From Phormidesmis sp. (GTDB lineage Bacteria; Cyanobacteriota; Cyanobacteriia; Leptolyngbyales; Leptolyngbyaceae), in assembly GCA_965248535.1 (NCBI GenBank), contig CBDFJR010000005.1, forward strand, positions 1,632,001 through 1,696,000: DNA of 64,000 bases. The letters run 5' to 3'. Below the pieces are notes generated by a model that was not told where the DNA came from, ran no database searches, and saw only the letters and a program-made list of their open reading frames with translations. The position numbers were made by a program, and so were the translations under genes. Every line of letters starts with the position of its first letter. Position 1 is the stretch's first letter. Shown here piece after piece: positions 57,980-64,000 of this stretch.

Positions 57980-58453
57980 TTATTGCACGATCGCTTTCCA
58001 CACTAGCCCGATCACAAAAACGCTTAAAGCTGCAATGCTAACAACTAACAATAAAAATCCGAACAGCAATAGCAGTACAAATCCTTGGTCAGCTTTTTTC
58101 TGATGTTGGGGTGAATCGAGATGCGCTTCTAACAATCGCACATTTTTGCTGTTGGCTTTCCAGGTGACATCTAACAAATCTCCGGCAACCGGAACAGAAC
58201 CCGCTACTGTGTCGAAGACTAAATTAGACACCATCCGCGTCACGGTCGATCGGGGCAACCCCAGTCGAGCCGCTTCCCACACAATGTAGACCGAAAACGC
58301 CGCCATGACTAAATCTCCGCCACCGGGAAGCAAGCCCACGATCGGGTCAATTCCGACTCTAAACGAGGTGCCAGGAATGGCGATCGCGTTGTCTAAAAGA
58401 TGAGCCAGCGATCGTAGTCGTTGCAGTGAAGCCGCTTTAGAATCGGGTTGCAT
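57980..58453 (-). CDS. DUF4112 domain protein
   Basis: LLDNAIAIPGT.FRVGIDPIVGLLP, GD.LDV.WKAN. Confidence 0.92.
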   Translation of the reverse strand: MQPDSKAASLQRLRSLAHLLDNAIAIPGTSFRVGIDPIVGLLPGGGDLVMAAFSVYIVWEAARLGLPRSTVTRMVSNLVFDTVAGSVPVAGDLLDVTWKANSKNVRLLEAHLDSPQHQKKADQGFVLLLLFGFLLLVVSIAALSVFVIGLVWKAIVQ

Positions 58454-58616
58454 AGATGCTCAAAAAACAAGTCGCTCTCAGCATAGAGGAAGTTAGAGCG
58501 ATCGGGCAGTTTGATATTAGAATCTATCCCTGAATTGCATTATTTACTTGATTTAGACCTGCTCTGAAAATCCATCTTCAAAGCAGATCTATTGACGACT
58601 CCCTAACCCCAACTCC

Positions 58617-58988
58617 CTACAGTTGAATGGTTGTTTTGTTGGATACCTCCTCTACTTGAATTAACGAACCACTACCCAGAACAATGTTGAACTTCATTAA
58701 AGAACGTTCAACCTGATAACCAGGCAACACTCGAACAATCTGATACTCTGTGGTCAAATCACTCGTGCCATCCCACTTGAGAAACGCCAGTTGATTAGAC
58801 GCAATCTCACTCAGTTCTGAGACGAACTCTTCAATGCTATCGCTAACATTCACGAGAATGCCAGACGGCACAAAGAGATAACGCTCTTGTAAATCCAAAA
58901 CCACACTCACCCGATAACGCTTTTCGATTGAGCATCGCAACTCAACCGTAAACGAAATCGAGCTAGGCACGATCGTCCTAACTGCCAT
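58617..58988 (-). CDS. orphan hypothetical protein
   Basis: 123-aa ORF, ATG with GAGG RBS; no family recognised. Confidence 0.6.
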   Translation of the reverse strand: MAVRTIVPSSISFTVELRCSIEKRYRVSVVLDLQERYLFVPSGILVNVSDSIEEFVSELSEIASNQLAFLKWDGTSDLTTEYQIVRVLPGYQVERSLMKFNIVLGSGSLIQVEEVSNKTTIQL

Positions 58989-59443
58989 AGTTTTTGTCCT
59001 CTTAGTTAAGTTAAAGAGGACAAAAACTCTGATGGCTCAGAAATTCGGTTGGGGTGAAACCTGTATGCAGGATCTTGATTCCAGCCTTTCAAGATCCCAT
59101 AGCAAAGCCGACGGTGTACAATCATGAACGCCTCCTGAGTTACTGACTCTAACTAGGGATGGAAGACCTCGGAGTCTGATTTGGACGATCAGGCTTCGGG
59201 GCACAACTCCATCACTGCGGTGTATTCTACAGGAGTTTTTTGATTTTTGGAATAGTGAGGTTTTTGGGGGAGGGAAGCGATCGGGTTTTGGGGAAGAGAG
59301 GGGAGCGATCGTAAATTCTCCCTGATTTATGTTCCAGTCGAGCAACGGCAGGGATGCGATCGACTCAGCGCCATGACTGATTCATCGGGACGAGACAATT
59401 TACTTTTGGCTCCCTTAGAATCGAAAAACCTGAGTGCCATTCC

Positions 59444-59602
59444 GTATAATTACCCGAAAGTGGAGAGTTATCCTGTGAGAATTCAGGATGATTCCTAAAA
59501 AAATGGGAGTTATCCGGTTTCCATACGGCATAATTTCTCTGAGAGAGGCATTTATCCTGTTTGATAGGAGTTCAAACGGCAGAAATAGTTAGACCGTTAT
59601 GC
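59444..59602 (+). mobile_element. long, atypical attC-like site
   Basis: R''-like GTATAAT (59444), second GCATAAT near 59529, R' GTTATGC (59596); weak internal complementarity. Confidence 0.4.
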
Positions 59603-60151
59603 ACACCATTTGATGCAGTATCTCCGACAAGCATAATTTGCTCAATTCGGATATTTCTTCGATCACGAGTTGCTTGACTGCAAAGCCTAGAGTTGAACCA
59701 ACCGAACATTCCTCAACGGCATCTCACTTTCTATTGAGCAAACGGAAGGATTCAACTTGTAAAGGTCAGTGGTGAACTTGGCTGGCAAGAGCAGTCATAA
59801 ATTTGAAAGAAGCATTCGCAAAGCTGATGTGACAGCGATCGCTACGCCGACTTATCATTTGGTCAAATTACGCATTTGTAGCTTATAACTTGTCCAAGCA
59901 AAGATACTTCAGAAAATTTCTTAGAGAAGTGACCAAATTTATTCCTATTAAGGAATTAACGTAGGTGACGGGTCGCATAGGATTTCTGAAAGCGGTGCTC
60001 CGTCAGTTACAACTTTAGCGCGAATGCCGAGTTCTTCGATTTATCTGTGGCTTATTGAGATGGCTGAGTTCCTGTGCTTAATAATGAATTGGCAATGAAA
60101 CTCTGGCGAAGCTTGCGAAGCATAGATGCGGTTGATGGTTTGTCGAGCAAC

Positions 60152-60221
60152 GCATAACAAAACCCCAATGCGTTAGAGCCGGAGACCGATGCGAGAGGGT
60201 TTCAATTACGAGCGTTATTGC
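60152..60221 (+). mobile_element. degenerate attC-like site
   Basis: R'' GCATAAC followed by AA; AAACCC/GGGTTT arms; GTTATTG at 60214. Confidence 0.45.
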
Positions 60222-60985
60222 TAAAATTTTCACTACTTTCATCTCCAATTGACTTCTCAGTCGAAAACAGTAATCTTGGATTAAGAGGGGAGCTTAGAGA
60301 TAATATGTCGCCGCTAACCTTTGGTACACTCTTGAACTATCTGTTAGTTGCCGCCAGCCCGAGATACTTTAGTTGATATAATCAATTACTTCGGTCTTTT
60401 AGAGCGCTTTTATCTTAATTACCAGTCAAGCATGAACAGCTTTTAGACAACGCTCAATCCGAAACGGGAAGATGTAATCAACGGTGCAGCAGACATAATC
60501 GAAATTGCAACTCAAGATCAGAGACTCAGAACGGTTTTCAATTCCATCTATAATTTTGAATTAAGTTGCCATTTCATCCATACGCACATTGTAAGAGAGA
60601 ATTTTATGATTGATAGTCGTAGTTCGCGCCGACTTATCTATGCTTACGACGGGTCGATGAGATTTATGACAAGTGCGTCCTCAAGTTGAGGAAGGCAATC
60701 ACAGGCACCGATCGTGGCGAGATCATTGAAACCGGAATTGACGATAGATGGTGGCAGTCTTCGTTGATGCTCAGCCTTGGGTGATTCGGTGGGAGGTGAC
60801 AGGTAGCCGCAGCTTGAGGAAGCTTCCGCAATGAGGATTTAAATCCGTCCGCGAATCGCCGAGTTCTTCTATCCTTCTTTCATCATTATGAGATGCACTT
60901 GGCTTTGGCATTCTGCTGACTGTCGAAGCGTTGGGCGCGAAGCGAGGGTTCGGTTGAACTGTACAAAGACGAGCAACGCAGAACA

Positions 60986-61091
60986 AGATAACAACCCGAT
61001 TGGATGGCGGCTTCACTGTTGAGTCAGTTGATCTGGGTCGAGGCTGCAAAAATCAGACGGTTTACAAAGCCGCTCAATCGGAACGTTAGGT
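60986..61091 (+). mobile_element. integron attC site
   Basis: ATAAC-AA-CCCGATTG...GCGGCT // AGCCGCTCAATCGG-AAC-GTTAGGT. Confidence 0.8.
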
Positions 61092-61181
61092 CGCTTGTCT
61101 TCTTACTAAGGCATTCAATGAGGCTATGCATAGCTCTGCCATTTCATTTTCAAAGTTGACGTTTAGATAGGTGCAGGGTCT

Positions 61182-61706
61182 ATGAGATGTCCTAAGTGTG
61201 GTTATGATAATTCGCCTGAAGGTACACAGGATGGTAAATGTGACGAGTGCGGGCATCCTCTGTTTGCTGAAGGTGAGAGTTTAAGTCCTCAAACTAATGA
61301 TTCAATCGGCGACAGCATAGTTAGTGCTTCCACTGGTAAGCGAATTGTTAATTTTATCGGAGATCTAATGATTTCTAGATTTATCGTAGTGGCACTATAT
61401 ATGGTTCCCGCTAATTCAGGGGGCATAAGTTCTTCAGTAAAAGAGCCGGGTGGAAATTTTTTGTTCAATATTCTCATATTATTTTTGTATTATTTCTTAT
61501 GTGAAGCAAGATTTCAACGGACACCAGTGAAATTTATTACGCGGACAAAAGTCGTTATGAAAGATGGTTCAAAGCCTAGTGAAGGTTCAATAGCGTTAAG
61601 AACACTCATCAGGTTTGTGCCATTCATAATCTTTTCCATGTCTTCCTACGGGACTTGGTGGCATGATCAATGGACAAATACCCGTGTGGTAGACAGTAAA
61701 GGATAG
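61182..61706 (+). CDS. RDD family membrane protein with N-terminal zinc ribbon (gene cassette)
   Basis: CPKC..CDECG; ASTGKRIVNFIGD, YYFLCEA..QRTP.K, LRTLIR, WHD; flanked by attC sites; AT-rich. Confidence 0.85.
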   Translation: MRCPKCGYDNSPEGTQDGKCDECGHPLFAEGESLSPQTNDSIGDSIVSASTGKRIVNFIGDLMISRFIVVALYMVPANSGGISSSVKEPGGNFLFNILILFLYYFLCEARFQRTPVKFITRTKVVMKDGSKPSEGSIALRTLIRFVPFIIFSMSSYGTWWHDQWTNTRVVDSKG

Positions 61707-61757
61707 GAAAACGGATTGGTGTAAAGTTGAGAGTCCTGGTCTGAGTATGTTGTCGCG

Positions 61758-61843
61758 GTCTGACAACCGCACTGCACCGGAATGTATGATACGGTCGGTT
61801 AATTGCAAAGGTAATCTGCATCCGGTGAGCGCGAACGTTATGC
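61758..61843 (+). mobile_element. integron attC site
   Basis: GTCTGAC-AAC-CGCACT(g)CACCGGA(a)TG // CATCCGGTGAGCGCG-AAC-GTTATGC with two extrahelical bases. Confidence 0.8.
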
Positions 61844-61910
61844 CGCTTATATCGTCCAGGGGCATTGCTGATTTCCAAAATCTAGAAAATTATTAGCAGG
61901 AGAAGAGTTC

Positions 61911-62147
61911 ATGTCATCTTTCAAGCTTGAATCTATGAAAAATGGGGATAACTTGTCCTTAACTAGCACAATGATGTATCCAGGAGTCACAGATCTTCAT
62001 GTTCACAAACACGAAAAAGGTCTGACGCTTACCATGGTGTACAAAGGTGAGAAGGAACACCTTCCACTTGATAGATACATGCCAGCAGCAGAGTCTAAAG
62101 AAACTGTTGACCATATGTACAAGAAACTTCAACAAAAGTACGGCTAA
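61911..62147 (+). CDS. orphan 78-aa protein (cassette cargo)
   Basis: ATG with AGGAG RBS shortly after an attC R' site. Confidence 0.7.
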   Translation: MSSFKLESMKNGDNLSLTSTMMYPGVTDLHVHKHEKGLTLTMVYKGEKEHLPLDRYMPAAESKETVDHMYKKLQQKYG

Positions 62148-62282
62148 GTTCTTTTTTCATTCCAAGACTTGGAGAGGTGTGATCGCCCTATCAAGAGTAA
62201 TTGCCCCTCTAACAATCGTTCACCAAACTTTAGATTTGCTCAAAATCAAATCGGTGTAGCCAGTGGTACAATCATACCCATT

Positions 62283-63065
62283 ATGTATGACGATACCTGC
62301 CGATTCCTTGCCGAGCACTTCTCCGCCGACTTTGCCAGTTGGCTGCTGGGAAAATCTGTCACCTTGACAGAACTTCAGCCCTCCGAACTCTCCCTTGACC
62401 CAATTCGCGCCGATGCCCTGATTTTCCTAGAGTCGGACGAAGAAACTTTGCATATCGAGTTTCAAACGCTTCCCAAAGATAATATTCCATTCCGTATTCT
62501 AGATTATCGTGTGCGAGGCTACCGGAGAGATCCGACTAAACCGATGCGCCAAATTGTAATTTATCTGAAGCAGACTGCATCGCCGTTGGTTTATCAAACC
62601 AGTTTTACAATGGAGCGCACCTGCCATGAGTTTGAGGTGATTCGCTTGTGGGAGCAGCCTGCATCACTCTTTCTAGAATATCCTGGACTGATTCCTTTTG
62701 CGGCTTTAGGGCAAAGTGCAGATGCAGAGGAAACGCTACGCCAAGCCGCTCAAAGAGTGGATCAGATCACTGATCCCCAAATTCAAGCGAATCTGATGGC
62801 GGCATCCGGGATTTTAGCTGGGTTAAAATTAGAACAGGAAGTAATTTATCGTTTATTGCGGAGGGACATCATGCAAGAATCCACTGTTTATCGTTCGATC
62901 CTGGCAGAAGGTGAGACAAAAGGCGAAGAAAAAAAACAGCGAGAGATTGCCACTAATTTTTTACGAGATGGTTTATCGGTCGAAACTGTTGCCCGTGGTA
63001 CAGGGTTATCGATCGAGGAAGTTCAACAGCTTCAGCAGCAATTGAACGAGTCTCCGCAAAATTAG
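62283..63065 (+). CDS. Rpn family recombination-promoting nuclease/putative transposase (PD-(D/E)XK)
   Basis: YDDTCRFLAE, IRADALIFL...LHIEFQT, RILDY, IRLWE, MQESTVY; C-terminal IA.NFL..GLS.E.VA..TGLS.EEV. Confidence 0.9.
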   Translation: MYDDTCRFLAEHFSADFASWLLGKSVTLTELQPSELSLDPIRADALIFLESDEETLHIEFQTLPKDNIPFRILDYRVRGYRRDPTKPMRQIVIYLKQTASPLVYQTSFTMERTCHEFEVIRLWEQPASLFLEYPGLIPFAALGQSADAEETLRQAAQRVDQITDPQIQANLMAASGILAGLKLEQEVIYRLLRRDIMQESTVYRSILAEGETKGEEKKQREIATNFLRDGLSVETVARGTGLSIEEVQQLQQQLNESPQN

Positions 63066-63086
63066 GGCTGGTCGGTGTAGTGAGCG

Positions 63087-63173
63087 GCATAACAACCCGA
63101 TTGGAGCGGATCGACAAAGTTAGTTGGTCATGTGGCAAAAAATACTCGCAGCCGCTCAATCGGAACGTTATTT
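63087..63173 (+). mobile_element. integron attC site
   Basis: GCATAAC-AA-CCCGATTG(g)AGCGG // CCGCTCAATCGG-AAC-GTTATTT; ends nearly identical to the 60986 site. Confidence 0.85.
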
Positions 63174-63464
63174 GTAGAGCAACCACAAATCGCAAAGTGG
63201 GCAGTTTAATTTGATGTTAGATTGCAATACTACGCAGAGAAAACTGATTGATGGCAGGGTTGCATCGAAGCTACAGAAGTATATAACTTTAGCTATCTGT
63301 GGCTATTGATAGTTGGCGATCGCTCAGAAGATTGATCAAAAAGCTTATGGTCTCAGGTTTAGTCCAACTGTTAGTGATCGCCCGTGCCTTGATTGCTGCA
63401 CGCACTCTTTAGTGCGATCGCTCCACACCCGCTAGAATTAAGTCTCTATCGGTTTTAAAAGTCT

Positions 63465-64000
63465 TTGTTATCTCAACCGTTAAAAGTCGTCGTGATTGGC
63501 GGAGGAGCGGCGGGCTTCTTTGGCGCGATCGCCTGTGCTCAAACCAACCGCAGCGCTGACGTGACCCTGCTCGAAGCGAGTCGTCAACCGCTCACCAAAG
63601 TGCTCGTGTCGGGGGGCGGACGCTGCAATGTCACCCACGCCTGTTTTGATCCAGCAATTCTGGTGCAGAACTATCCCAGAGGGGGAAAAGCGCTGCGGGG
63701 TGCCTTTAGTCAGTTTCAGGCAAAAGATACGGTCGAGTGGTTTACGGCACGCAACGTGAAGCTGAAAACTGAGGCAGACGGGCGAATGTTTCCGATTACT
63801 GACAATTCTGCCACGATCGCTCATTGTCTCATTCAACAAGCGCAGGATGCTGGAATCAACGTTTGTCTGGGAGCCAGCGTTAAATCTGTGATTAAAAAAG
63901 ACAACGCTTTTGAGATTGAGTTGCGATCGGGCGACATTCTCACCGCCGATCGCTTGTTAATCGCGACGGGCAACAGTCCCCAAGGGTATCAGATTGCTAG
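63465..64000 (+). CDS. HI0933/BaiN family NAD(P)/FAD-dependent oxidoreductase (partial, runs off window)
   Basis: VVVIGGGAAGFFGA, KVLVSGGGRCNVT, GRMFP; TTG start inferred. Confidence 0.92.
   Translation, partial: MLSQPLKVVVIGGGAAGFFGAIACAQTNRSADVTLLEASRQPLTKVLVSGGGRCNVTHACFDPAILVQNYPRGGKALRGAFSQFQAKDTVEWFTARNVKLKTEADGRMFPITDNSATIAHCLIQQAQDAGINVCLGASVKSVIKKDNAFEIELRSGDILTADRLLIATGNSPQGYQIA

Follow-up and report, generated by a model that had tools for sequence, protein, structure and literature searches.

The locus

The window analysed here is a stretch of 64,000 nucleotides (C5:1632001-1696000) from a Phormidesmis genome that we call G000 (5.03 Mb in 5 contigs). Between a DUF4112 gene (57980-58453) and baiN/HI0933 (from 63465), where the G+C content is 42-46% against about 50% around it, lies a short array of gene cassettes that a model working from the letters alone (the sequence-only reading) had described as clustered attC sites with no integron-integrase (CALIN). 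The call fits the working definition of IntegronFinder, with three attC sites on one strand within 4 kb and no intI gene nearby. However, this is not a bare attC cluster, as it keeps an attI site, a promoter region and a remnant of intI. Operationally the locus is a CALIN; in reality it is an amplified integron platform that has lost intI, within a distributed system, and one of about 11 scattered platforms in G000 that carry attI and cassettes without intI. It consists of an orphan module (putative promoter, leader, the gene orf123 and a hairpin), an intI cut to about 20 codons, attI with a putative cassette promoter (Pc), and the array. Throughout, C2: and C5: refer to contigs of G000, G005 and G006 are congeners, and L-numbers label single loci.

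The island is about 4.9 kb long. A HIP1-like octamer marks its left junction (58498-58505), just past which similarity to a congener with another insert ends, and comparison with congeners places its right junction at a HIP1 octamer upstream of baiN (63414-63421). These octamers are weak evidence, because HIP1 is common in this genome (5128 octamers in 5.03 Mb, about one per kb). A part for HIP1 in DNA uptake and integration has reportedly been suggested.

attC sites

We built a covariance model, R1, from 17 attC-like sites outside the window, found by a grammar scan and BLAST. The training sites were chosen partly for complementarity and for likeness to the window sites, and R1 differs from the model of IntegronFinder. 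When the window was scanned with R1 without filters, the three clear palindromes that the sequence-only reading had proposed as attC were the top 3 of 17 matches (E<=5), all on the bottom strand: 60986-61091 (32.3 bits), 61758-61843 (65.8 bits) and 63087-63173 (70.5 bits), the last attC of the array. The best match anywhere else in the window scored 15.9 bits. The outcome that would have refuted them, an absence of covariance-model hits, was thus not seen, and all three are confirmed as attC sites of the plus strand. They fit R1 in their R'' and R' cores (AAC...GTT) and in L boxes that pair on the bottom strand, where the extrahelical bases are C and T, and they are spaced by 0.8 and 1.3 kb. 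Two details of the earlier description also hold: the middle site carries ..GAC at R'', and the first and last sites share their ends, with identity over 17 and 21 nt.

As for the model itself, 89.3% of the cells in the training stems are paired, against 25-38% in slid controls, and two-sided changes occur in 14 of 22 pairs, a level reached by none of 500 shuffles. Folding energy barely separates the window sites from shuffles (z -1.4 to -2.1), and an Rfam scan of 58000-64000 gave two matches, at chance level. In G000 as a whole, where 150 of 1231 candidates were scored, R1 gave 49 matches at E<=1. A solitary attC (35 bits) lies at C5:1631245-1631330, 670 nt before the start of the window.

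The first clear site, with its crossover at 61085/61086, differs from the attC at C2:1133921 solely by 19 inserted nucleotides, with zero substitutions. Two degenerate attC sites had also been proposed upstream of it. One (59444-59602) has no R1 match, and the region is attI. The other (60152-60221, plus strand) is half right: 36 nt of a left arm are 89% identical to the site at C5:1067129 (E 0.002), while the remainder of the site is absent, R1 does not match, and the fold z is +0.66.

attI and the remnant of the integrase gene

The sequence-only reading saw neither an attI nor a tyrosine recombinase. Comparison of copies reveals an attI and a remnant of intI. The segment 59444-59589 has eight more copies in G000, all of which match up to ...AAATAG(TAG)|TT and then diverge; this defines an attI of type C (59444-59596, plus strand) with its G|TT crossover at 59588/59589. 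The window copy is short of the three nucleotides TAG and carries another G|TT, at 59596; both peculiarities are perhaps part of the artefact described below. attI-C is 73% identical to the region divergent from the intact intI-C of the congener locus L034, and in locus L102 cassettes follow it. On the minus strand, 59305-59385 holds what is left of the 5' part of intI-C, some 20 codons of which codon 7 is a stop, ending at a deletion junction in the HIP1-like GCGATCGT (59305-59312). Of its first 19 residues, 14 are identical to the intact IntI-C of L034. The junction is identical in all eight attI-C copies that are linked to orf123, and the reading of the remnant fused to the HIP1-like site is the same in six of nine attI-C copies. 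A candidate Pc (TCGAAA-18-TATAAT, 59421-59450, plus strand) matches the consensus at 10 of 12 positions, and is not above chance (13 such sites in the region against 9.0+/-3.2 in shuffles).

Compared with a complete integron, then, the locus has an attI with G|TT upstream of the array and divergent from intI, and lacks a functional adjacent intI. The window holds no full tyrosine recombinase, as had been noted (PF00589 matches: 0 of 5). The search of the genome for integrases that the sequence-only reading recommended found two that pass TIGR02249, with scores of 468 and 466 bits against a cut-off of 265, which none of 14 control genomes reached. These, IntI-A and IntI-B, have intact catalytic motifs and arrays of their own, and both lie on C2, the window being on C5. 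Neither is an IntI-C, and the IntI-A integron is without the orphan module. An IntI over the cut-off is found in 44 of 81 genomes of the host's family.

A cyanobacterial LexA-box pattern matched one of 10 intI loci and nothing in the window. A perfect palindrome, AGTAC-N4-GTACT, stands just upstream of intI at L033:2011 and is absent from the other nine intI loci tested; we take it to resemble a LexA box. Sites resembling attI-C without the orphan module occur at C2:2140380, where one heads an array of three attC sites, and at C2:2448467-2448517. A transposase-like insert about 1.2 kb long lies between orf123 and its attI-C in one copy (L010, C2:1675657-1676916).

The orphan module

To the left of the deletion junction, on the minus strand, lies the orphan module of about 700 bp. 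It starts with a conserved leader and a -10-like TAGAAT (59126-59260), a putative promoter defined from a 30-copy alignment. A 39-codon leader open reading frame (ORF) follows (59006-59125), then an 18-bp hairpin, an inverted repeat over the ribosome-binding site and start of orf123 (58986-59031), then orf123 itself (58617-58988), an orphan gene of 123 aa, and lastly a 3' hairpin. In most copies this last hairpin, with a variable loop, comes after the stop codon and marks the left edge of the repeat; the window copy keeps its inner arm (58597-58607), the outer arm being missing. In place of the outer arm is a small palindrome (TAGACCTGC...GCAGATCTA, 58555-58592), and similar sequence follows orf123 in L109. 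We considered the left hairpin as a reversed attC or a cassette start and rejected both, since the order of its cores is wrong and R1 does not match it.

The start, GGAGG and first 20 or so codons of the leader ORF are near-invariant as DNA. Its stop falls in the loop of the start hairpin, and the leader ORF and orf123 are probably translationally coupled, an arrangement that we take to resemble hok/mok coupling. The core stem of that hairpin is kept in 30 aligned copies with little covariation (covariation term -0.98; 5 of 60 pairs). Sequestering hairpins are predicted at the starts; a sequestered toxin start, together with antisense RNA and toxicity, would mark an RNA-controlled (type I-like) toxin-antitoxin system.

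The orf123 gene is under purifying selection (dN/dS 0.12). It occurs in 7 of 7 congeners and in 0 of 53 other genomes, and the named relatives of its protein are labelled Phormidesmis. The protein matched no family in Pfam, NCBIfam, PADLOC or PHROGs, and PDB gave no credible hit. A profile search gave 15 proteins, including a few distant full-length relatives and two unrelated repeat proteins, its top Atlas match (0.91) is a cluster without a name, and a metagenome scan with orf123 (P0123) found no locus. A first structure model had a predicted local distance difference test score of 34 and a second, from 2 of 5 models, a score of 86; the second drew nothing from Foldseek at E<=0.001, whether against PDB or BFVD, and its best Z was 4.5, which is not proof of a new fold.

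A dispersed platform

G000 has 17 copies of the module, with orf123 intact in 16. Eight stand with attI-C, three with attI-B (one of these with an intact intI-B), one with attI-D, and five are solo, of which the one at C5:1266500 (L019) directly adjoins a tRNA-like sequence. All 12 attI-bearing copies have at least one co-oriented attC within 12 kb, against none of the five solo copies, and just one of these 12 platforms retains intI. Modules precede 31 of the 49 attC sites in the genome; the other 18 do not lie downstream of one. Behind the shared intI-C deletion, the seven copies outside the window have seven different first cassettes.

The same organization is found in congeners. We fetched 61 congeneric orf123 loci, of which 41 have at least 1.5 kb of upstream DNA and are usable for attI typing. 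A type defined from intI-linked loci is matched by 31 of these; among the 31, an attC lies within 5 kb in 24 and a full-length intI is present in six (one frameshifted). Remnants of several IntI types point to repeated, independent deletions of intI.

In a tree of 68 module copies (the 17 from G000 and 51 congeneric loci with a full leader), 16 of the 17 G000 copies fall in one clade (support 100/98). The copy at C5:1069877 is within this clade even though its position is common to three congeners. There, G005 and G006 have both flanks in common and differ in what lies between them, attI-B without intI versus attI-E with intI; G000 has attI-C there and a different right flank. The G000 copy outside the clade, at C5:1942766, has an old orf123, 81% identical to that of the window, and an attI that is 100% identical. 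The clade pattern, the swap of attI and intI type and this mosaic therefore point to recombination, whether among the copies or with incoming DNA.

At the island's own site, six congeners have both flanks: two are empty (about 65 nt), one has an unrelated insert of 2.2 kb without attC, and in three the flanks are apart. This is the comparison of the DUF4112-to-BaiN interval across relatives that had been called for, and the content does differ among congeners.

Some sequences recur between arrays. A cassette start common to two intI-C-less arrays is 97.8% identical over 542 nt, and their platforms are 90-95% alike. An element of about 720 nt without an ORF sits in attC R'' sites at C2:1133222-1133921 (L009) and in five other arrays, with 99-100% identity among most copies; we take it to be a group IIC-attC intron. 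In several genomes (L006, L007, L015, L028, L030, L033 and L070) the array opens, after attI sites of at least five types, with the same ORF-less cassette of about 200 nt (start TTCCACGAG, long attC of 114 nt), which is perhaps a promoter cassette under selection.

The garbled left end of the array

The sequence-only reading took the left end of the array to be the most heavily decayed. A consensus artefact explains 59597-61083 better than age does. Here the two proximal cassettes (plus strand) are interleaved, as two tandem supersequences of one ORF-less cassette of 361 nt that belongs to the intI-B array. The cassette is found as ordered exact blocks both in 59590-60230 (12 blocks, 135 nt) and in 60340-61090 (15 blocks, 191 nt), against means of 15-17 and maxima of 35-46 in 200 shuffles. 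Alignment scores to it are 326-362, against 144-169 for unrelated targets; match counts from permissive alignment were discarded, as controls reached about 260/286, and the scores and exact blocks were used. In both copies some 64 insertion events fall within 361 nt, and the offsets never decrease. The stretch 60340-61090 also interleaves an unrelated small gene that is common in the family (score 164 against a shuffle maximum of 89). A second component of 59597-60230 was not found, the match to contig C3 being at shuffle level. Across 59597-61085 there is no stop-free frame longer than 93 aa, and one in 500 random genome tiles is as poor. The statement that the sites separate co-oriented ORFs or their remnants thus holds for the last two cassettes, in which the ORFs are intact, but not for this chimeric-looking region.

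Contigs from two public runs, X1 and X2, match the window flanks and cassettes 3-4 almost exactly, the flank contigs at 0-4 differences per contig; either run may itself be the source sample of G000. Neither covers 59670-60537, save for a depth of 1.2 in one bin of X1. In both, the cassette carrying an RDD-domain gene (cassette 3) is preceded by a different attC, and the differences stop at 61083, two bases before the crossover.

Most likely, therefore, 59597-61083 is a consensus artefact of mixed alleles and not decayed DNA. The mixture would stem from several strains or from polyploid chromosomes, and the interleaved alleles suggest that the proximal array is polymorphic in the sequenced material. 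Whether the stretch could be real DNA from an error-prone, template-switching process is a separate question. Such an origin would agree with an assembly that is 99.8% complete and with the failure to find the second component, but it would have to generate this density of insertions twice, with offsets only growing, and keep two unrelated sequences in register, while near-identical X1 and X2 are almost without cover there and match in the flanks. We regard it as very improbable. In another array, at C5:354328-356069 (L014), some 870 nt separate the two parts of a split aspartoacylase-like gene, and 74 nt are imperfectly duplicated; this is perhaps an insertion or another consensus artefact.

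Cassette cargo

The two intact cassettes carry three genes on the plus strand. That of cassette 3 (61182-61706) encodes 174 aa with a zinc-ribbon-like N-terminus and an RDD membrane domain (PF06271, E 2.6e-9). Cassette 4 begins with an ORF of 78 aa (61911-62147), which has no family in scans of Pfam-type, NCBIfam and defence/phage libraries, and continues with an Rpn-family nuclease gene of 260 aa (62283-63065; TIGR01784, 72.9 bits against a cut-off of 52.1). This gene has the internal translation start expected of its family, an in-frame GGAGGG-5nt-ATG at 62871, from which a candidate RpnS antitoxin of 64 aa may be made. The remark that no transposase is visible is arguable, as TIGR01784 is named 'Rpn family recombination-promoting nuclease/putative transposase'. 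Related Rpn genes stand before the solitary attC at C2:1340894 and in an array of G005. A gene-within-gene Rpn/RpnS antiphage toxin-antitoxin system has been described (PMC10400941), and the internal ribosome-binding site and in-frame ATG of the cassette 4 gene are its point of likeness; here the gene is cargo only, a candidate system, and the main text of that paper does not name cyanobacteria.

How the platform may spread

The anatomy of the platform, its copy number, the shared deletion, the different cassettes behind identical deletions and the swap of attI and intI at one locus are observations, and from them we infer how the platform spreads. We think it probable that an intI-deleted platform has been multiplied and swapped by recombination through the module, and that its arrays have been remodelled in trans. 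The conserved 700-bp module would serve as a homology anchor, and recombination between copies or with incoming DNA would spread and replace the arm that carries attI and cassettes. One or two intact integrases per genome would remodel the arrays in trans, most easily through attC x attC excision and re-insertion, and insertion at attI-C may need a visiting IntI-C. We favour this account because of the seven first cassettes behind one deletion allele, the switch at the crossover in X1 and X2, and the cassette start shared at 97.8%. The sequence-only reading left a choice between an array built in trans and a relic: the two intact IntI of G000 make service in trans possible, and the decay that it saw at the left end is most probably the artefact described above.

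Several points weigh against this account. An attI is reported to be specific to its cognate IntI (PMC2095811), and IntI-A and IntI-B are only 55-57% like IntI-C. The near-identical sequence common to arrays is almost all intron, not cassettes. The 97.8% piece is without a terminal attC in both arrays and could have moved by homologous recombination, and no contig of X1 or X2 joins attI to the RDD cassette. Finally, just one insertion site could be set against an empty one; three more flank searches gave no clean empty site.

A broader proposal is tentative, and we hold it to be possible at best: the genus would run a distributed integron, in which a selected 700-bp module seeds and homogenizes 10-20 platforms, at least six attI types are grafted by recombination, and all arrays are kept turning over by one or two integrases, whether these are resident or come in by transformation. 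If this is true, orf123 would stand as the first case of an accessory gene that is part of the integron platform itself.

The specificity of attI would also suit arrays that are frozen relics, whose cassettes were gained while the integrase was present, whose deleted allele later spread through gene conversion that reached as far as the attI crossover, and which have been inert since. The two IntI of G000 are both of other types than IntI-C, the intI-C remnant is degenerate, and conversion among copies is evident. Inert arrays are harder to reconcile with near-identical strains that differ in the attC before the RDD cassette and switch at the crossover, with the mixed alleles that the interleaved consensus implies, and with a cassette start common to two arrays. 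In our judgement this history is unlikely.

Another view gives the leading part to the orphan module, which would be either a small transposable unit that is not autonomous or a toxin module under RNA control, moving nearby attI platforms to other sites or preventing their loss. The left edge of the repeat is sharp at the hairpin in most copies and the right edge variable, five copies are solo, and 15 of the 17 G000 positions are unmatched from the junction among 57 congeneric copies; the purifying selection on orf123, the predicted sequestering of ribosome-binding sites and the coupled leader ORF would also suit such a module. Yet we saw no transposase, terminal inverted repeats or target duplication at the module, with one empty site resolved. 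Furthermore, neither family nor fold searches link orf123 to a transposase or a toxin, the covariation of the start hairpin is slight, and many positions are common to congeners, so that most copies are old. A mobile or addictive module is thus rather improbable as the cause.

That the locus is a CALIN seeded de novo at attG, or a piece that a rearrangement broke off a complete integron, is scarcely credible: such routes are described in the available parts of two papers (PMC4889954; 10.1101/2022.09.11.507474) and might apply to the 18 attC sites not downstream of orf123, but an array that begins at attI with an intI remnant and a full platform largely refutes them here.

Comparison with known systems

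The origin of CALINs is an open question, as most have no recognisable intI remnant and attI is not searchable; here attI could be defined by comparing copies, and a route to CALINs becomes visible, in which intI is deleted and the platform then multiplied. The system offers a direct test of the use of an orphan attI in trans, and it gives a genome many slots close to a promoter where there would otherwise be a single one. It also carries a caution: what looks like decay in the hypervariable arrays of a long-read assembly can be an interleaved consensus.

Neither CALINs nor integrons of cyanobacteria are new. A CALIN is defined for working purposes by at least two attC sites with no intI close by, and in the available part of the source intI pseudogenes lie near only 15 of 279 CALINs (PMC4889954). 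The locus agrees with this class in its short array, its lack of a functional intI nearby and the presence of IntI elsewhere in the genome. It differs in keeping attI, a promoter region and an intI remnant, and in being one of 11 such platforms on a shared repeat in one genome. We found no description of satellites that retain attI on a selected orphan module and form a family across a genus in the open-access literature, where the supplements of PMC4889954, which may list cyanobacterial arrays, were outside our scope.

Insertion at attG, which yields single attC sites lacking an integrase (SALINs; Loot et al., 10.1101/2022.09.11.507474), is similar in that an integrase acts outside its own integron, and may explain the solitary attC sites of G000; as far as the accessible text of that work describes them, those inserts have no attI or platform, unlike the present locus, which has an attI and is not a SALIN. 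The Delta-attI-type cassettes of mobile integrons (PMC12901181, in the portion available) likewise have an attI apart from its integrase that is possibly still recombinogenic. Their attI is truncated and lies within clinical arrays, whereas here a platform with an accessory gene is dispersed over the chromosome.

Another parallel is that of the sedentary chromosomal integrons of Xanthomonas (10.1101/2025.06.18.660453, available in part), in which intI has been deleted with platform and array kept, and extra CALINs occupy conserved loci. Their platform is at one locus (ilvD), and strains with a common intI deletion usually had identical arrays. In G000, by contrast, one deletion allele is found at eight loci with different arrays, and several attI types coexist.

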